Source: Candidatus Hydrogenedens sp. (lineage in GTDB: Bacteria > Hydrogenedentota > Hydrogenedentia > Hydrogenedentales > Hydrogenedentaceae). From it: 64,000 nt of DNA. The translations under genes were made by a program, and so were the position numbers. The DNA is taken from contig JBMFRC010000001.1 of the NCBI GenBank assembly GCA_049968235.1, positions 352,001 through 416,000 on the forward strand, written 5' to 3'. Shown piece by piece: positions 21,991-35,641 of this stretch. Under the pieces are notes generated by a model. It searched no databases. It was not told the DNA's origin and saw only the letters and a list, made by a program, of their open reading frames with translations. Position 1 is the stretch's first letter. Every line of letters starts with the position of its first letter.

Positions 21991-23295
21991 CTATTGATTT
22001 TGTTGATGATATTTTTCTTTTCGTGCAGAGTTAAAAAGTTCTTTCATTTTGTAGTGAACATAGGGCTGTTTTGCCGCATCCTCTTTTCCTTTCGCGTGAG
22101 CGACCCATAATTCTAAATCTGTGGGACAATAGAGAACGCTGTGCAAGTTAACATTGACCATTGCCACTGCTTTGAGGATCTCTAATGCGATATTCTGGTC
22201 AATCTTGCCGTAATTCTCTTTTATTCGTGTAGCCATTCCTTTATAACGATGGTCATAGGAATTTGAACCATAGGGCATATTTGGTGCATTGGCACAGGTC
22301 TGTAAAGAGCGAATGGTTGGATCCATTGCTTCATCGGCACGCATAACGGCATTCTCAATGGGAATTGCATATTCGACAGTCTCGCGCGGGTCATTATCTG
22401 TAAATATTGCTACATGATGGGCACACGTTTCATAAACCAGGGCTCGGTTTTCATCTCCATCCGCAATCACATAGTTATAACCCACGGTATGCCGTGCTTC
22501 GAGAACAATTTCTGTTACCTGGTCCAAAGTAGATGCTTCTTCCAATATCTTGCGTAGAAGAAATTCAAGTGGGATACCATCAATGCGTCGGTCTTTATTC
22601 GTTGCTCCAATCTGTGCAATGGATACTTTGCGGTTATTCATGCCGGAGAGAACACCAATTGCACATGCATAACCGACAGAAATAAATGAATTCAATCCTT
22701 GTGGTTCATAACAGAAGGTAACCGCTGTATCCTGAATTCCTGCTTCCATAATCCAATCAAAATTTCTACCATGATACATCTTCCCATCAACAGTAGCTTT
22801 ACCCCACACGGCAAACGAACTACAACCCCGTTCTGTTATAACGGAAACAACATGAATACGACGCAAATCCTGAAGATTTACACCGGCACCATCAGCAATC
22901 CCCTCCAGTTCACGAGAATACCGTAATGGAATATGTGGCGAACATAATCTCCATGTAACATCCAATATCAACTTTGCTGCAAACTTTGGTAACCCTACTT
23001 CTTGCTTCGCCAGTTCTAATAATTCGTCAAATCGTGCAAGACTACGGTGAATAACATCTTTCAAGAGAACACCTCGTTGAAAACCCATCTCATACGGGGT
23101 CCCTTTCAAGTGAATAACCTTCGTCCCTTCAATTTCCTCCAAGAAAGCTTTTTGTATATCTACTGCTTCATGGGGACCGCGCGTAGGATAGAGCCAGAAG
23201 TAGAATCCAGCACCTAAAACCAGCACAACAAAAAGAATGGGAAGTATAAAACGAATTTTCTTTTTCATGGGAAATTCTCCAATAACAATTTTCAA
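21991..23295 (-). CDS. Peptidase C45 family Ntn-hydrolase (acyl-CoA:6-aminopenicillanic-acid acyltransferase-like), membrane anchored
   Basis: N-terminal TM/signal (the real start is probably MKKKIRF at 23268). GTPYEMGFQRG and the self-processing/nucleophile site ERG-CSSFAVWG are typical of C45. Confidence 0.6.
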   Translation of the reverse strand: MKIVIGEFPMKKKIRFILPILFVVLVLGAGFYFWLYPTRGPHEAVDIQKAFLEEIEGTKVIHLKGTPYEMGFQRGVLLKDVIHRSLARFDELLELAKQEVGLPKFAAKLILDVTWRLCSPHIPLRYSRELEGIADGAGVNLQDLRRIHVVSVITERGCSSFAVWGKATVDGKMYHGRNFDWIMEAGIQDTAVTFCYEPQGLNSFISVGYACAIGVLSGMNNRKVSIAQIGATNKDRRIDGIPLEFLLRKILEEASTLDQVTEIVLEARHTVGYNYVIADGDENRALVYETCAHHVAIFTDNDPRETVEYAIPIENAVMRADEAMDPTIRSLQTCANAPNMPYGSNSYDHRYKGMATRIKENYGKIDQNIALEILKAVAMVNVNLHSVLYCPTDLELWVAHAKGKEDAAKQPYVHYKMKELFNSARKEKYHQQNQ

Positions 23296-23421: not shown

Positions 23422-26400
23422 TTATACATCCTTAATGATAGAAATAGGGATTGTTAGATTGTTAGCAATATCGGGAATATCATTTCTATATGTAAAAAGG
23501 ATTATCTGTTGTCCTTCTCCCAATGCTTTCAATGTTTCCAGAGATTGAATCAATTGGGGATAGTCATAAGACACAAAAGGGTCATCTAACAATAACGGAA
23601 TTGGTTCTTTGAGAAAATGAGGAATTTTCATAAGGGCGACACGCATAGCAAGATATGCCTGTTCCTGAACAGAGGGATTTGAAGATAATTCTTCCAGAGG
23701 TATGGGGTTCTCTGTTTGTGCAGGAATAACTTTCAATGTCAGGTCCTGCTCTACAAGCACACCTGTATATTTGTACTTCGTTAAATGTATCAGCAAACGA
23801 CTGACTTCATTTTGTAAAGGCAATGCAATTTTATGATACCGATATGTGGATAATTGCTGTAATACCGATATTGCTGATAATACACTCTCCTGTTCGTATC
23901 GAAGTATTCTCCATTGAGTTTCATAATAATATTTTTCTTCAGCAATTTCATTTAACGGTCGCAATTTGTTTGTCAATGTTTCCAACTCTGATTGTAGAAT
24001 CTGTATATCCTTTTGTATTTGTTCTACTTCGTTTTCTGTTTGCTCAATAAGTAGTTGCAATTGTTCTTCATCTTCGGCGGGGACTGATGGGACAAAATCT
24101 TGTGTTTGTTTTTCCAGTTCCTCTATTGTGCCATCATTCAGCAATTGTTGAAGTTGCAGTTCGGTTTGTTTAATTCGTGAAAAGATAGCCTGTGCTTCTT
24201 CGGCAAGGGCATATTTGTTTTTCCATTCGGAGATACTGCTTACTCCTGCCAGTTCTAATATCTCCTGAATCTGTTTCTGGTTTTGAGATAGTTCCTCATC
24301 CACTTTTTGCAGTTGTTGATTTAAATCCAATCGCTTTTTCCGAAGCTCGGATACCTTTGTTTTTAGCCCACAGTACATTTCTTCTGCACGATAATATGAA
24401 CGGAAAGTATCCTGTGTTAAAGTTTCCCCTGGTTGAAGCAGTCCGGATTGAACTAAGTCATGTTCTATCCGGCTAAGTATCTCTTTTTGAATTTTATTGT
24501 AAATATCCTTTGTATATTCTTCTTTTTTCGTTATAGTGTATGTTAATTGTTGATATTGGTTCCGGAGGTCCCAGAGCCTGCGGTGGTACATTCTTGCTTT
24601 TTCCTGCAATTCAAATACCTTTCGCCGATTTTGCTCTATTTTATCCTTATCTTCCAGAGATAGACCTGCTTGTTCAAAAAGATTTTGTATCTCTTGATAA
24701 AGGTCGTAGGTTCGGGTCTGGTTAATCGTAAATAGTTCCTCTGCTTTACGAACCTGTGTAGATAAATCTCCCTCGTTTTTTAACCAGGCACAGTATTCGT
24801 CATAAAGCCCCTGCAATTCGCGCACATGCTGTAAATTGGCTTTATTAAGTAGTGCTGTTATTGGATGCTTATCAATATATTCGAAGGTAACTATTTTCTG
24901 AATTTTTTCTTTCAATTGCTTCAGGAAAACATCGATTTCTTTCAGAGTTCGCTTATTATTGATATAAGAACTCACAAAATATAAAAAAGCCAATCCTACT
25001 GCACTGGCAAACCATAGAGATTCCTTTTTATGCATTGTTATAAACAGATAAATGAGTAAAATATCCAGCAAAAAACAAAGCGTCCCTAATACCAGGTCCA
25101 CAGGTTGTCGGGAACGAATTTGTAGTTTTAATACCTCTGCTTCTTCCAATTGTCTTTCTAATTCTTGCTGTTCTTCTTCCGGTTTATCTTTATATTTCAA
25201 ATAATCATCTACAAGCCCTGCAAAGTCATTTATATCATCAAATAATTCCCGATACGGTTGCGTTTGTTGTTGAACACGGGTATATTCTTTTCTCAGTTCA
25301 TTAAGTTGCGATTCGCTTTTATGTGTTTCCTTCAAAGAACTTTTATACATATCAATGGCAAAATCGGTTTTGGAGTAGAACATATCATCTTTTTGTATTA
25401 CCTCTGGAAGTTCCGAAACAATTTTTTCAACTTCCTGAATATGTTCGTTTACCTTCTCTCGTTGATTGTGTAGTTCTTTCAACACCTCCTCATTACTGTG
25501 AATATGTTTCAAATATTCCTCATATTTATCTTGATAATCCTTAATATAATCAATAGGGATAAAGGTAGAATGACGCAGTTCTAACTCAAGTTCATTGATT
25601 TCCCCAGAGATGTTCTCAATCTCATTTTGCAATTTCTGCTTTTGCATTTCCGCATGATTGATAGCCATCTCCGTTTGAATAACATATACATTCTGGTCAA
25701 CTGGAAAATTTCTAAAATTGGAGTATGAAAAGGAACGTCTAGTCAGTTCATTTAACTTGTCTCGTAAGGCTTTTGCATCGTTCTTTTTTCTCCAGAGCGT
25801 ATATTGACGGGCATATTGTAATTTATCTTGCAGTTCCTTATATTTCTGTTGAAGACTACTCAGTTTCTCCTTATGTTGTTTCAGAAATAATTTCTTCTCG
25901 CATATTCTTTCAAAACTTTCCTTTACCTGCTCATATTCCTCTGATAACCTTTCTATTTGTTCCGATATCAGGTTATAGGGGCGTTTATAGGTACGTTCTG
26001 TTCCGATGGATTGCAAATATTCCTGAAAATCGGTAATTATGGTATTTACAGATTGTTCCGTTGTCCCTGTATCTATCAAACACTGAAGATGTTCCTTTAC
26101 TCTGTTCCCGTGGGTAAAGGAATTCAAACTGTCTATTGTCTTCTGTGAAATTACAGACACTCCGGAGAACATTTCACGAGTCAAATCCAGATGTTCATTT
26201 ATAAAAGCAGGTTCTCCATTTGGATATACAGGAACTGTATCTGTTATATCATTTGCATCCATCCCTTCATATATTCTTAATGATGGTTCAGGTCCAAATA
26301 CTCGATGAAGATGTATCAGTTTCCCCGTATTCAGGCGATAAACAATATTTCCCCGATAATCCGAAGTATACCATGGTGTATATTTATAATAATTTTCAGA

Positions 26401-26580
26401 AAAGGATGCATTTTTCTTTTTGGAAGTTTTTTGCCCAAATAACATATCCAGCATAAACTGGAATAATGTATTTTTCCCATTCTCATCTCTGACAAAAATT
26501 ATCTGGAACCCCTTCTCAAATTCAAGGGGAATCTTTTGTAGTTTCCCGAAACCATAGATATGTCCCTTTATAAATTCCAT
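23422..26580 (-). CDS. SbcC/Rad50-like SMC-type coiled-coil protein of the SbcE/YhaN type, with an internal TM hairpin and degenerate ATPase motifs
   Basis: 1052 aa. N-terminus IYGFGKL...IIFVRDENGKNTLFQFMLDMLFG sits at the P-loop position. Long heptad-rich coiled-coil arms. A hydrophobic hairpin (LVLGTLCFLLDILLIYLFI / LWFASAVGLAFLYFV) lies mid-protein. C-terminal LSSNP (signature position), LLLDDPF (Walker B) and ILFTY (H-loop position). Confidence 0.65.
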   Translation of the reverse strand: MEFIKGHIYGFGKLQKIPLEFEKGFQIIFVRDENGKNTLFQFMLDMLFGQKTSKKKNASFSENYYKYTPWYTSDYRGNIVYRLNTGKLIHLHRVFGPEPSLRIYEGMDANDITDTVPVYPNGEPAFINEHLDLTREMFSGVSVISQKTIDSLNSFTHGNRVKEHLQCLIDTGTTEQSVNTIITDFQEYLQSIGTERTYKRPYNLISEQIERLSEEYEQVKESFERICEKKLFLKQHKEKLSSLQQKYKELQDKLQYARQYTLWRKKNDAKALRDKLNELTRRSFSYSNFRNFPVDQNVYVIQTEMAINHAEMQKQKLQNEIENISGEINELELELRHSTFIPIDYIKDYQDKYEEYLKHIHSNEEVLKELHNQREKVNEHIQEVEKIVSELPEVIQKDDMFYSKTDFAIDMYKSSLKETHKSESQLNELRKEYTRVQQQTQPYRELFDDINDFAGLVDDYLKYKDKPEEEQQELERQLEEAEVLKLQIRSRQPVDLVLGTLCFLLDILLIYLFITMHKKESLWFASAVGLAFLYFVSSYINNKRTLKEIDVFLKQLKEKIQKIVTFEYIDKHPITALLNKANLQHVRELQGLYDEYCAWLKNEGDLSTQVRKAEELFTINQTRTYDLYQEIQNLFEQAGLSLEDKDKIEQNRRKVFELQEKARMYHRRLWDLRNQYQQLTYTITKKEEYTKDIYNKIQKEILSRIEHDLVQSGLLQPGETLTQDTFRSYYRAEEMYCGLKTKVSELRKKRLDLNQQLQKVDEELSQNQKQIQEILELAGVSSISEWKNKYALAEEAQAIFSRIKQTELQLQQLLNDGTIEELEKQTQDFVPSVPAEDEEQLQLLIEQTENEVEQIQKDIQILQSELETLTNKLRPLNEIAEEKYYYETQWRILRYEQESVLSAISVLQQLSTYRYHKIALPLQNEVSRLLIHLTKYKYTGVLVEQDLTLKVIPAQTENPIPLEELSSNPSVQEQAYLAMRVALMKIPHFLKEPIPLLLDDPFVSYDYPQLIQSLETLKALGEGQQIILFTYRNDIPDIANNLTIPISIIKDV

Positions 26581-27740
26581 TCCGGGGGAACCTCACATGT
26601 TTCAACGGTAGGAATTTTTAGATTTGCTCCTCCAGCAATTCTTGCGGTTAAATGTCGGACTCGTTTTGCAATACTGACAGCGGAGGTATTCGGTGCACAT
26701 TTTTGTTGTTCCGTTACCTGCTTAAAAAATTCAGATAGAACGGTAATCTCTCGCAAATCTTCTGCATTTTCAAATCCTTCTATTTCTCCATCAAAACTCC
26801 ATGTAATAAATAGATTTTCTTCCTGAATAGATATCATTGTTTCCGGGATGCCATTTAGAAGGGAAGGAGAAATTGTTCCACTGAAACGGAGATGAACAAC
26901 ACAGGGTTTTTGCAAATTTGTCAATTCATTTCGTAACTTCGTGTGAAGTCCATCTTCATTTGTAAACAAAGACATATCTATATTGATAAGAGCATAAAAA
27001 TTTTTCTGTAAAGACATATGTTCTACATGGGAAACTTTCCATTGATTATCATCCGATTGAAAGCGAATACCTAAAACCCCAAAAGGAGGAGTATCATCCA
27101 TACTTATAGGGTCGGGAATACCACAACAACACGCCGTCAATTGCGAAGTATTGTAAAATTGTTTGAAACTGTGTCCTTTCCCTACCCCGATATATGAGAT
27201 AACATCCGGGACCTTCTCAAACCATCTTGACAATTCCCTTTTATCGTTAAACATAGGCAATTCATAAGATAGAAGAATATGATTCCTGCCATCATAGCCA
27301 GTCGGTAAATTAAGTTCCGCAAAATCCCCTACCTTCCTATTATCTCCTGCTATTGCATAAACAACAATCGGGGTCTTATTCCCTTCCCACCTGTTTGTTG
27401 TTTCGGAATTCATTACTATTACATTTTCGGGAAAAGTCTCTAATATGTAGGGAGAATATTTTGTGATAGGGTCTGATTCGCCGGGAATAATAATGACTGG
27501 AACAGGTTTAATTGCTTCACATCGCTCAAACAGGAATTGAAGGGTTTGTTCCGTTACATATTCTGCATCCAGCAAATTACCGGTTATGAATAAGGCATCT
27601 GCTTTATACTCAAATACTTTACTGACAATTGCATCGAGTAATTCCCTCTGTCTTCTTCTTCGTTCTTGACCATAGTGTAGGTTTAAGGAGGAAAAAAAGG
27701 GCTTGTCTAAGTATACATTTGCGGTATGTAAGATGAACAT
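26568..27740 (-). CDS. SbcD/Mre11-like calcineurin-fold phosphoesterase homolog (SbcF/YhaO-like) with substituted metal ligands
   Basis: MFILHTANVYLD aligns position-for-position to SbcD MRILHTSDWHLG. ADALFITGNLLD aligns to the GDxxD motif. IIIPGESD aligns to GNHD. Overlaps the SbcE-like gene by 13 nt. Confidence 0.6.
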   Translation of the reverse strand: MFILHTANVYLDKPFFSSLNLHYGQERRRRQRELLDAIVSKVFEYKADALFITGNLLDAEYVTEQTLQFLFERCEAIKPVPVIIIPGESDPITKYSPYILETFPENVIVMNSETTNRWEGNKTPIVVYAIAGDNRKVGDFAELNLPTGYDGRNHILLSYELPMFNDKRELSRWFEKVPDVISYIGVGKGHSFKQFYNTSQLTACCCGIPDPISMDDTPPFGVLGIRFQSDDNQWKVSHVEHMSLQKNFYALINIDMSLFTNEDGLHTKLRNELTNLQKPCVVHLRFSGTISPSLLNGIPETMISIQEENLFITWSFDGEIEGFENAEDLREITVLSEFFKQVTEQQKCAPNTSAVSIAKRVRHLTARIAGGANLKIPTVETCEVPPEWNL

Positions 27741-27765: not shown

Positions 27766-28716
27766 TTAAGAATATATTATATCAATTTGCGGTTCCTGCT
27801 TTGCTATGGCATCAGTAAAACCCCTATATCGCCAATATCGGAATACTCGGCGATACATTCGGAGAAGTAATTTAGAATCTTCTGGAAGTTTTAAGCAAAA
27901 ACGGTGGTAGTAAGGAATAAGCAGGGCATTGATAATTCGTGTAGTATAAGGAAAATAAAGTTTATAATTAACGACGATATGATAGTCATTAGGAAACAAT
28001 CGCAGGTAACAGCCCATTGAATAACCCCGACGGTAATGATATCTGCACATATCCAGATATGAACTTCCTTTCCAAAGCCAACAAAGAGCCTGATTGTCAA
28101 TATGAAGTTTACAACCTACTTGCGAGAGCCTTTTTACCAATTCCACTTCTGCGAATTCCGGGAAATAAAATGATTTGTTAAATGTTCCACTTTGAAGAAT
28201 AAGGTCACGAGGGATACTCATGTTATAGAGAGAGAAATGGGAAGGAGTTATTTGTGTAATTTCCTCCATTGAAGGTGGTTCATCCTCTGGCAAGAACCAG
28301 GGTGTTATGCTTTTTGAAGAGAGTCGCGGATGCAAAAGTAACGCGCCTCCGATACAGGCTTTCCCCTCATATGCGTATTGGAGCTGGACATGCCTTTGGA
28401 TCCAACTATTACTGGGCAATACCTCCGGTTGACTGCACAATACCCACTTTCCTTTCGCCTCGTGCAATGCTAAGTCCCATGCTTGTATCATTGACTCTCC
28501 CCCATGTGGAATATAACGAACAATCAACGGAGACCCTTTTGACAAAGAAGCAACTGTCTTTCGCGTTTCTTCTGAGGAATTCGTTTCAACAATAATCCAC
28601 TCAAATTGTGCTAAAGGATAATCCTGATGTTCCAGATGAAAAAACCATGGGGATAAACACCACGACAAATTATTTCCTACTAACAGCACGCTTGCATGGA
28701 TTTCATTCGTTGACAT
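27766..28716 (-). CDS. GT-A fold (GT2-like) glycosyltransferase homolog lacking DXD and other acidic motifs
   Basis: ASVLLVGNN..FEWIIVETNSSEE..VRYIPHGGESMIQAWDLALHEAKGKWVLCSQPEVLP follows the GT2 N-terminal pattern (IIPTYN..EIIVVDDGSTD..xRYIxxxNxGxxxARNxGxxxAxGEYIxFLDxDD). The DD and DXD positions are ET and SQPE. 25 nt upstream of the SbcF-like gene. Confidence 0.4.
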   Translation of the reverse strand: MSTNEIHASVLLVGNNLSWCLSPWFFHLEHQDYPLAQFEWIIVETNSSEETRKTVASLSKGSPLIVRYIPHGGESMIQAWDLALHEAKGKWVLCSQPEVLPSNSWIQRHVQLQYAYEGKACIGGALLLHPRLSSKSITPWFLPEDEPPSMEEITQITPSHFSLYNMSIPRDLILQSGTFNKSFYFPEFAEVELVKRLSQVGCKLHIDNQALCWLWKGSSYLDMCRYHYRRGYSMGCYLRLFPNDYHIVVNYKLYFPYTTRIINALLIPYYHRFCLKLPEDSKLLLRMYRRVFRYWRYRGFTDAIAKQEPQIDIIYS

Positions 28717-28825
28717 TCCGATACTTTCTTCCCTTTTTGTTATTATAAAATATTAACATGATAATATACTGAAAAGGGAATTTTTATTTCTATATATAGT
28801 TTTCCAGAGATAAGGCTCATCATAT

Positions 28826-33405: not shown

Positions 33406-34158
33406 TTAGGTATTCCACTGAAACTGTTCTCCTAAATATACTTTTCGAACGCGCTCATCAGCAGATACCTCTTCAGGGGTTCCGGTGCATATAACTTGCC
33501 CTTCGCTAATGATATAGGCACGGTCTGTTATCGATAAGGTATCCCGCACATTATGGTCGGTAATCAAAATACCGATACCTCGCTCTTTCAATTCCTTCAC
33601 CATAATTTGTAATTCGCTAATAGCAATTGGGTCTATTCCCGCAAAGGGCTCGTCTAAAAGAAATATTTTAGGCTCTGTAATTAATGCGCGAGCAATTTCT
33701 GTTTTTCTACGCTCTCCACCTGAAAGGGTATAGGCATATTGGTTTGATAAATGTTCTATATTCATCTCTTTCAGAAGTTGGTGAGCTTTCTCTTTATGTT
33801 CTGCACGACTACCGGGTAAAAATTCCAATATTGCTAATAGATTTTGTTCCACAGTTAAATTACGGAATACAGATGGTTCTTGAGCCAGATATGCAATCCC
33901 TGCACGGGCTCTACGATACATCGGGAAACGGGTAATATCCTGCCCCATAAAAAATACCTTTCCATCATCCGGCTTAAATAGCCCCACTACCATGTTAAAT
34001 GTTGTTGTTTTTCCAGCACCATTGGGTCCCAATAATCCTACTATCTCACCTTTATTTAAACATAGTGAAACATTGCGGACAACTACGCGTTTCCGAAATG
34101 ATTTGACTAACCCTTGAGTTTCCAATAACTTTTCAGAAGACATATACCTCTCCCTCAT
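33406..34158 (-). CDS. lptB: LPS export ABC transporter ATP-binding protein LptB
   Basis: Walker [10 protein letters not shown], signature [15 protein letters not shown], Walker [14 protein letters not shown]-loop ITDHN. Downstream of lptC and lptA homologs. Confidence 0.85.
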
Positions 34159-35060
34159 AGAGGTTTTAGCACATCAGGGAAGGCACATTGAAGCAGTAAC
34201 CGGTTTAGTCGCACCTGTTCTTCTGCTGTTAATGTTCCCTTATTTAAGAACTCTTTTGCCGTTTCCGGTAAAGTTGTCTTTGCCCATGCTTCCTTATTAT
34301 AGAAATCCGGTTTCCGTAATAATCTATTTATCTGTTTGACCAAATCCTGTTTTCTCTTTAGAATCAAATCATTAGGAGTGGACAAAAATTGACTTCTCGC
34401 ATCCCCATCAAATTTACTTAACAAGTATTTGCCGGGAGTCATTTCGCTGGATTGCCCCTGTCTTTTTAATTCTGCAATAAAACCATTCCAATCTATAACA
34501 TCAGTTTCCGTAAGAAGAGACAACCCTGTCTCTATACCACCTTCAGAACCAACTCCTCCCTGTAGCGGTATCATATCCGCTTGTAGATTTTCGATGTCAA
34601 TCGTATTGTTCTTAAAATCCAGAACAATTTTGGAACCTTTTAATCCCTGTGCTTTGGGACTATCTAACATAGGATTCCCTGTGAATTCTACCATTTCCTT
34701 TTTAAAGTCCCAGACTGCTTTCTCTGCTGTTAATTTACCTTCAGGATGTTCAAGATATACCTTGCCTTCCATACGAATCAGTACCGGTGAATTTCGACCT
34801 TCTTCCCATTCAAAAGTCATTCTATCCGCTTTGATAGGCATATTAGGGGTATTGGGTTCTTGAGATAGTAAAACGATACTTACACCTCCGCTCATCTCAC
34901 GTATACTCATTCCTTGATTTAGTGTCCCTTTCAATTTCCCAACTTTCTCAATTTTCATGGAGGAATATTTACCTAAACTTATATTCTCCTGAGCATATAC
35001 TTTTACATATATAGCGATAAACAATAATAAGATGAATAATACAGGCATTAGTTTTTTCAT
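34155..35060 (-). CDS. lptA: LptA-like (OstA N-terminal beta-jellyroll) periplasmic protein with ~120-aa C-terminal extension
   Basis: Signal peptide. Position between the lptC-like and lptB genes with overlapping junctions. Repetitive beta-strand pattern for the first ~180 aa, then an extra helical tail. Confidence 0.5.
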
Positions 35061-35641
35061 GTTGTATTCCTCAATATCAACGGGACCTGTCCGGATACTT
35101 CTTCCAGTTCAAACTCTTTAGTGTCAGGATAAATAATTAAATTTTCCGCATCCAGATGTAAATCTGTGCCCTGCACTGCAATTTTCCCATGTGTCCAGAT
35201 GCGGGCAGGTTCTGTTTCTGTTCGATTACTCCATTCAATCCCATCCGTATTAAATAAAATATTATCCATTTGAGCCTCTACATTTCCCACAAGAGAGGCT
35301 TTATTCATTTTTTCAAAAACTCCTTCTCTTGCAGAAATTTTGATATGTTCTTTACCGGATTGAATATCATAAATGACTGCATGTACATCTTCAACTTTCC
35401 ATGTATTTTCATCAATGACAGCAAACTTTTCCGCATGCAACCATAAGGTAGGTTTGCGTGCTTCACCTATGGTAGGACGTGGGTCATGATGATACAAATC
35501 CACAGACGAGACATTCATATCATCTATGGATTGCTTTTGAGGAGGAGTTGTCTCCGCAGTAGGTAGGGTTGTAGAGTTTTTTTTGCCACAAGAAAATAGT
35601 AGAAGTGTGCAAATTGTAAATACCGTCATCCATCTCATCAC
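35057..35641 (-). CDS. lptC: LptC-like membrane-anchored protein
   Basis: 194 aa. N-terminal anchor MMRWMTVFTICTLLLFSCG. Size and position immediately upstream of lptA-lptB. Overlaps the coaX stop. Confidence 0.45.
   Translation of the reverse strand: MMRWMTVFTICTLLLFSCGKKNSTTLPTAETTPPQKQSIDDMNVSSVDLYHHDPRPTIGEARKPTLWLHAEKFAVIDENTWKVEDVHAVIYDIQSGKEHIKISAREGVFEKMNKASLVGNVEAQMDNILFNTDGIEWSNRTETEPARIWTHGKIAVQGTDLHLDAENLIIYPDTKEFELEEVSGQVPLILRNTT

Follow-up and report, generated by a model that had tools for sequence, protein, structure and literature searches.

A glycosyltransferase-fold protein without the canonical catalytic aspartates, encoded beside SbcEF-like and YfhO-like genes in Candidatus Hydrogenedentota

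The stretch of Candidatus Hydrogenedens sp. DNA analysed here (contig JBMFRC010000001.1, positions 352,001 to 416,000, 64,000 nucleotides in all, hereafter the window) encodes a protein of the family 2 glycosyltransferase (GT2) type, hereafter the GT-like protein, in which none of the canonical active-site aspartates is kept. Its gene is the first of a tightly packed minus-strand operon, followed by an SbcD-like and an SbcC-like gene that together resemble the SbcEF pair of Bacillus subtilis, and is flanked on its other side by a divergent gene for a YfhO-family membrane protein. Since the aspartates are lost and the neighbours, a membrane sugar-transferase and a membrane-anchored DNA-repair-like pair, are conserved across the phylum, the GT-like protein probably serves a membrane module in some non-standard or non-catalytic capacity. 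Our best reading goes further and sees in it a non-canonical protein, probably without catalytic activity, that lies at the membrane periphery and serves the module as a binding or scaffold subunit; we give this an even chance of being right. The fold and ancestry of the protein are ordinary; its active-site erosion and gene partnership are not.

As a single sequence, the GT-like protein is marginal, with PF00535 (Glycos_transf_2) matching residues 34–115 at 25.7 bits against a gathering cut-off of 23.3; the best-scoring named family, EpsD (NF041875), reaches 51.6 bits over residues 26–214, with an equivalog cut-off of 370 bits, and a single-sequence search against the Protein Data Bank sequences gave no match. 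Profiles are more informative. One built from 13 orthologs matches K4CP, TarS, PcManGT and heparosan synthase, and one built from 40 family members reaches K4CP at 3.3e-26, TarS at 2e-16 and PcManGT at 5e-15, whereas the polyprenyl-phosphate transferases score more weakly (DPMS 9e-8, GtrB 3.8e-4, ArnC 2e-3), so that the DPMS, GtrB and ArnC group is not the closest to the family. An AlphaFold2 model based on 13 close orthologs had a mean predicted local distance difference test (pLDDT) score of 56 and an unusable C-terminal half and was not used; with the 40-sequence alignment the pLDDT rose to 94.4, with a predicted template modelling score of 0.91. In the latter model, residues 8–214 show the beta-alpha-beta succession of a GT-A domain, helices come after it at 220–240, 257–276 and 285–304, and the structural neighbours are sugar transferases throughout. 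The predicted structure thus shows a complete GT-A domain extended by about 100 residues of helices rich in basic and aromatic side chains; a transmembrane segment is absent (the highest 19-residue Kyte–Doolittle mean in the protein is 1.07). The last 101 residues include 15 Tyr and 12 Arg, and their isoelectric point is 9.7, compared with 5.7 for the N-terminal domain; these Tyr/Arg-rich helices probably form a membrane-interface or partner-docking surface. An earlier reading made from the sequence only had proposed both the GT-A fold of GT2 type and the Tyr/Arg-rich C-terminal half; the fold stands up to the profile and structure searches, including the Pfam match above cut-off, and the composition of the C-terminal part holds as well.

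The likeness to characterized GT2 proteins (PF00535; K4CP, TarS/TarP/RmlT, SpsA, PcManGT) extends to the fold, the order of secondary-structure elements, the generic scaffold residues Q31, N165, E192 and R196, and the C-terminal helical extension, which is common among GT2 enzymes of about 300 amino acids. The difference lies in the aspartates. Three independent alignments (HMMER to K4CP and TarS, MAFFT with 40 sequences, and hmmalign with about 160 sequences) agree in aligning the ‘vvDDGS’ motif with V43-E44-T45-N46-S47 (‘IIVETNSS’), ‘fLDxDl’ with C94-S95-Q96-P97-E98-V99 (‘LCSQPEV’), and ‘ED-x-E-L-x-x-R-L’ with A189-E190-V191-E192-L193-V194-K195-R196-L197. In the window protein, DD has therefore become E-T, DXD has become Q-P-E and ED has become A-E, and every canonical Asp is replaced. 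Beyond noting correctly that neither DXD nor DD is literally present, the sequence-only reading had placed both motifs where the three alignments place them, but its description of both acidic clusters as neutralised was too strong: the aspartates are gone and the acidity is kept, with E44 at the first Asp of DD, E98 where DXD has its final Asp, the one that binds the metal, and E190 at the catalytic-base Asp.

The GT-like protein belongs to a family of about 310 amino acids that hardly occurs outside Candidatus Hydrogenedentota. Word-indexed searches recover 14 close relatives of nearly equal length with 47–84% identity, and these orthologs share the start codon and the length with almost no insertions or deletions. 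The length is 315–317 amino acids in 14 of the 15 clade members, the exception being an N-terminally extended open reading frame (ORF) call of 330 amino acids. The wider family was reached only by exhaustive hidden Markov model (HMM) search, not by word-indexed protein search; it consists of full-length relatives of about 305–330 amino acids with E values from 1e-64 to 1e-25, after which thousands of generic GT2 domains follow. In a scan that covered one genome per species, where full-length matches come from named metagenome-assembled genomes, 7 of 8 are called Hydrogenedentota and one is binned as Nitrospirales. The closest database proteins carry the labels Candidatus Hydrogenedens or Hydrogenedentes and are annotated merely as ‘glycosyltransferase’, and among named proteins the family comes closest to EpsD-like repeat-unit glycosyltransferases and to enzymes of the TarS/K4CP type. 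EpsD proteins are similar in length, and the canonical family members P0018 and P0015 score 127–134 bits over up to about 270 residues with NF041875; all these scores are far under the cut-off, so the GT-like protein is not an EpsD member. A family signature, H27-L-E29-x-Q31, G61-x-P63, H129-P130, N165, Y228-x-x-G231 and G299-x-x-D302, is wholly present in the window protein; its residues are kept in 59–68 of the 68 wider members, and conservation exceeds 90% at the family-specific positions H27, E29, H129, P130, Y228, G231, G299 and D302. The family profile also finds proteins of 1500–2900 amino acids (P0043, P0046, P0049, P0058, P0067 and others) with 3–6 tandem GT2 domains, at 1e-29 to 1e-36.

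A rough neighbour-joining tree unites clade A (11 sequences, including that of the window) with its sister clade B (4 sequences) and places the two together within the wider family, which indicates that their non-canonical motifs are derived. The wider-family consensus is that of a canonical GT2 (ivvDDGStD, lfLDeDlL and faeveLakRL), and comparison of the sequences shows that the family was ancestrally a canonical GT2 of the manganese-dependent type, with DDGS, DXD and ED. Asp occupies alignment columns 44, 45, 98 and 190 in 67, 61, 74 and 70, respectively, of 76 generic GT2 relatives, and 60 of these have it at columns 44, 98 and 190 alike. The corresponding counts are 51, 17, 49 and 35 in the wider Hydrogenedentota family (n = 68; all three positions in 12), 3, 0, 2 and 0 in clade A (n = 11; all three in none), and 0, 0, 4 and 0 in clade B (n = 4; again in none). 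Within clade A, column 44 holds Glu in eight members and Asp in three, and column 98 holds Glu in seven, Asp in two and Asn in two (P0008 and P0009), whereas clade B has Ser or Thr at column 44. The loss of Asp is a mosaic across the wider family (P0015–P0073; loci L012–L028 and L093–L102), some members of which have no acid at the base position (AA, AG or GG). Judged from these sequences, erosion of the catalytic aspartates is a property of the whole family, of which the window clade is the extreme case. The suggestion that the protein is a nucleotide-sugar-binding or structural subunit, made in the sequence-only reading, is compatible with this family-wide erosion.

The gene is nevertheless maintained. 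Its dN/dS against the L008 ortholog is about 0.09, an approximate ratio because dS is near saturation, and its dN is the lowest among the four genes of the cluster; the GT-like gene is thus shown to be under strong purifying selection and to be the most conserved of its cluster. The three cytoplasmic proteins of the operon have dN/dS values of 0.09–0.21, which indicate purifying selection although their canonical catalytic residues are missing. That the gene is a pseudogene in decay, or that its ORF arose by chance and resembles GT2 only by accident, could be argued from the Pfam score barely above cut-off, but was rejected in view of the dN/dS, the 14 full-length orthologs and the family-profile match to K4CP, and we give it practically no chance.

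The gene neighbourhood was surveyed by tblastn of the four proteins, with several representatives each, against 172 loci from genomes and metagenomes; the counts that follow were made after removal of duplicates. Among the 22 lineages with enough downstream sequence visible, 15 have an SbcD-like gene on the same strand 16–301 nt downstream of the GT-like gene. Upstream, 11 of 19 informative lineages have a divergent YfhO-like gene at a distance of 74–228 nt, and one more has it 2.1 kb off. Both partners, the SbcEF-like pair and the YfhO-like gene, occur in 7 lineages; at L014, L022 and L096 the pair is present, but the roughly 10 kb upstream contain no YfhO-like gene, and the YfhO-like gene occurs without the pair at L001, L002 and L010. 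Generic GT2 loci from the same scans (L023–L092 and L103–L172) have neither partner alongside. Within clade A, the order of YfhO-like (divergent), GT-like, SbcD-like and SbcC-like genes is constant, whereas the flanking genes are wholly different. P0015, with 33–34% identity to the window protein, lies in the same four-gene arrangement, and the order GT-like, SbcD-like, SbcC-like persists down to about 25% GT identity amid unrelated flanks. Clade B (L001, L002, L010 and L011) retains the YfhO-like neighbour. Downstream, the clade B loci have not the SbcEF-like pair but a protein of 474–485 amino acids with a Fucose_iso_C domain and a BPD_transp_2 permease of an ATP-binding cassette (ABC) transporter.

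The link between the GT-like and SbcEF-like genes is therefore real and old, and neither partner is obligatory; the GT-like gene is the shared element of two alternative or joint partners. The sequence-only reading had pointed to the adjoining SbcEF-like pair, and the SbcD-like gene indeed starts 25 nt past the GT-like stop codon, has degenerate motifs and recurs in the same order in the 15 lineages. That reading had also asked whether orthologs always sit next to such genes and had named the occurrence of the gene without them as refuting it: in seven lineages (L001, L002, L010/L011, L013, L018, L021 and L099) the pair is missing, which makes the link frequent, not obligatory. The divergent YfhO-like gene, a neighbour as conserved as the pair, had gone unmentioned, and with it a reading in terms of envelope glycosylation.

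The YfhO-like protein has about 12 hydrophobic segments and matches PF09586 at 38.2 bits against a cut-off of 28.5, the match being limited to the last 76 or so residues at the C terminus. In the SbcD-like protein, the motifs HTADxHLD, GDLF and GNHD of L012, L014, L022, L101 and L102 read HTANVYLD, GNLL and GESD in the window, and motifs I–III are fully lost only in the window clade (the window, L003, L006 and L008). The SbcC-like protein of the window matches AAA_27 at 17.9 bits, below the 22-bit cut-off, compared with 49 bits, above it, for the L014 ortholog. Its Walker A motif reads VRDENGKNT, in contrast to GPNE[KQ]GKST in distant orthologs, a loss that L008 shares with the window; the protein keeps its Walker B (LLLDDPF), and its signature motif reads LSSNPSVQEQ. 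A hydrophobic hairpin of two transmembrane helices in the middle of the coiled coil is kept in all SbcC-like orthologs. Most of the phylum has canonical Mre11 motifs in the SbcD-like protein and a canonical Walker A in the SbcC-like protein, with partial erosion of partner motifs at L017, L020, L028, L096 and L098. In the window lineage, the GT-like, SbcD-like and SbcC-like proteins all lack canonical catalytic residues; outside the window clade, no correlation was found between GT Asp loss and either SbcD-like motif loss or the presence of YfhO. The models of PADLOC gave no match for the GT-like, SbcD-like or YfhO-like proteins, and matched the SbcC-like protein to the generic, structural maintenance of chromosomes (SMC)-like LmuB (E = 1.2e-13) and weakly to JetC. 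An anti-phage defence system was considered and set aside, as it lacks support from PADLOC.

Several of these observations weigh against a non-catalytic subunit. Of the four key Asp columns, three hold Glu (E44, E98 and E190), and none of the 15 members of clades A and B departs from E190 or E192, so that a remodelled, working active site is possible; Glu is the catalytic base in some GT-A families. Neither partner was seen at L013 and L018, and L099 is without the SbcEF-like pair, its upstream view extending over only 1.2 kb. Because the erosion of GT-like and SbcD-like motifs is uncorrelated elsewhere, the argument that a whole module has turned structural rests on one clade. An active enzyme would use a Glu-based site, possibly metal-independent or of altered specificity, and might carry out the cytoplasmic step of an envelope-glycan pathway that the GT-C-type YfhO-like protein completes outside, the SbcEF-like proteins being mere operon neighbours; we hold this, the main rival account, to be possible but less likely. 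The strong purifying selection suits it, as do the acids that nine of the 11 clade A members keep at every site (columns 44, 98 and 189/190), the resemblance of the canonical members P0015 and P0018 to ordinary EpsD-like GT2 enzymes, and the NCBI annotation of the orthologs as ‘glycosyltransferase’. It would also make sense of the YfhO pairing, which is as in CsbB/YfhO (PMC5836110) and is kept in 11 of the 19 lineages, including clade B without SbcEF-like genes. On the other hand, Glu occurs at column 98 or 190 in 0 of the 76 generic relatives, 74 and 70 of which have Asp there; column 44 is Ser or Thr in clade B, column 98 is Asn in P0008 and P0009, and the remaining Asp positions are taken by T45 and P97. 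The C-terminal transmembrane helices of CsbB and GtlA are lacking, and the family profile is far nearer to K4CP and TarS than to DPMS, GtrB and ArnC. Moreover, a linkage that persists at 25–34% GT identity with changing flanks is hard to call the inertia of bystander genes.

The operon raises a different possibility, that the GT-like protein joins the SbcEF-like complex in acting on nucleic acid or nucleotides, for example as a regulatory subunit that senses a nucleotide or nucleotide-sugar or through an Arg/Tyr-rich tail that binds DNA or another polyanion at the membrane, with the YfhO-like protein incidental. The shared operon with its short spacing in 15 lineages, the loci L014, L022 and L096 where the YfhO-like gene is missing, the basic and aromatic C-terminal region, and the role of B. 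subtilis SbcE and SbcF in DNA repair and transformation (PMC2811018) could all be cited for such a role. However, Pfam and NCBIfam scans of the GT-like protein returned no nucleic-acid-binding domain, the protein has no PADLOC match, and its structural neighbours are all sugar transferases. The consensus motifs of nuclease and ATPase are absent from the SbcD-like and SbcC-like proteins of the window, which casts doubt on DNA processing there, and we consider a role of the GT-like protein related to nucleic acid or nucleotides very unlikely.

Returning to a binding or scaffold subunit, the GT-like protein in the window lineage would no longer be a standard metal-dependent glycosyltransferase. 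It may be held at the cytoplasmic face of the inner membrane by its basic Tyr/Arg-rich helices and could dock there on the YfhO-like protein, on the transmembrane hairpin of the SbcE-like protein, or on both. As a binding or scaffolding subunit, it might still hold a nucleotide, a nucleotide-sugar or a lipid-linked glycan in its remnant cleft. Non-catalytic partner proteins of GT-A-like fold exist, such as CHPF, of the CHSY3–CHPF chondroitin polymerase, and Cosmc. The GT-like protein has no specific sequence relationship to these, its own loss of activity is inferred, and it is accompanied by a GT-C-like protein and an SMC/Mre11-like pair rather than by an active glycosyltransferase paralogous to it. 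A broader proposal, in which the four genes of Hydrogenedentota form a membrane module that couples an SMC-like ATPase–nuclease machine to envelope glycosylation, rather than or besides DNA repair, and in which the three cytoplasmic members have become non-enzymatic structural proteins in the Candidatus Hydrogenedens lineage, is in our view speculative and unlikely to hold as a whole.

YfhO-family proteins are best known from teichoic-acid glycosylation in Gram-positive bacteria, where the pairing of a GT2 gene with a YfhO-family gene is the hallmark of CsbB/YfhO lipoteichoic-acid glycosylation (PMC5836110). As in CsbB/YfhO and GtlA/GtlB, a GT2-fold gene of the window adjoins, at 109 nt, the gene for a YfhO-family polytopic membrane protein. 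The differences are that GtlA has two C-terminal transmembrane helices (PMC5836110), whereas the window protein has neither such helices nor a DXD, that the genes of the CsbB/YfhO system are co-transcribed and those of the window divergent, and that those systems are Gram-positive, whereas the Hydrogenedentota host is presumably diderm, judging from Lpt-like ORFs described below, and teichoic acid would be unexpected in it. The downstream pair resembles SbcE/SbcF (YhaN/YhaO) of B. subtilis (PMC2811018), in which a Metallophos nuclease-like gene lies beside an SMC-like gene of about 1000 amino acids with an AAA_27 head; SbcE lacks a CxxC hook and is unique in its hydrophobic central domain. The transmembrane hairpin of the window SbcC-like protein corresponds to that domain, and a CxxC hook is likewise absent. 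The window pair differs in belonging to another phylum, in sharing an operon with a GT2-like gene, in its eroded nuclease motifs in the window clade and, in the window and L008, in its eroded Walker A; the passages of PMC2811018 consulted make no mention of a glycosyltransferase partner for SbcE/SbcF.

The literature consulted, which concerned SbcE and YfhO, describes neither the family and its eroded active site nor an operon that joins GT2-like, SbcEF-type and YfhO-like genes, and current knowledge of either family leaves the operon link between GT-like and SbcEF-type genes unexplained. SbcE-type proteins have a hydrophobic central domain that still lacks an explanation, and the link could indicate that they act at the membrane. 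If the GT-like protein is non-catalytic, it would represent a bacterial case of a GT-A fold taken over for a structural or binding role, and the phylum-wide, stepwise loss of catalytic Asp would be useful for the study of how pseudoenzymes originate. If it is an ordinary active enzyme, what is left is a divergent GT2 whose active site is unusual in having Glu in place of Asp.

Table 1 Features of the GT-like gene and its neighbours, in window coordinates
Feature	Position	Strand	Remarks
Gene of the GT2-like GT-A protein	27766..28716	-	316 aa; stop codon 27766-27768
E44-T45, in place of the Asp-Asp of the ‘vvDDGS’ nucleotide-binding motif	28582..28587	-	Translation checked
Q96-P97-E98, in place of the DXD metal-binding motif	28423..28431	-	Translation checked; compare DCD (K4CP), DSD (TarS)
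A189-E190-V191-E192, in place of the catalytic-base ‘ED-x-E’	28141..28152	-	Translation checked; compare GGEDNEF of K4CP
Basic Tyr/Arg-rich C-terminal helical region, aa 216-316, without a transmembrane segment	27769..28071	-	
Divergent intergenic region between GT-like and YfhO-like genes	28717..28825	.	AT-rich, 109 bp; sequence reading
YfhO-family (GT-C-like) polytopic membrane protein, 760 aa	28826..31108	+	Pfam PF09586
SbcD/Mre11-like protein, 390 aa, eroded phosphoesterase motifs	26568..27740	-	Weak Metallophos and SbcD matches
SbcC/SbcE (YhaN)-like SMC-type protein, 1052 aa	23422..26580	-	AAA_27 and Rad50-like NCBIfam matches, all below cut-off
Transmembrane hairpin of the SbcC-like protein, aa 492-540	24961-25107	-	
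Degenerate Walker A of the SbcC-like protein	26467-26493	-	

The SbcC-like and SbcD-like genes overlap by 13 nt. Promoter-like matches in the divergent intergenic region (Table 1) are not above chance, and a terminator scan likewise stayed at chance level. The G+C content of the window is about 38%, and a scan of the window with the family HMM found no second GT2 relative. The gene after the SbcC-like gene (21991-23295, minus strand) encodes a protein of the AAT/peptidase C45 family (PF03417) with a hydrophobic segment at its start; a longer C45-family version of 710 amino acids follows the operon only in the closest relatives (L008, 15372-17504; L009, 6190-8322). On the other side of the cluster, three ORFs in a row at 33406-35641 (minus strand) resemble LptB, an ABC ATPase with the motif GPNGAGKTT, and periplasmic proteins like LptA and LptC; from their sequences, these ORFs suggest a diderm envelope with lipopolysaccharide transport.

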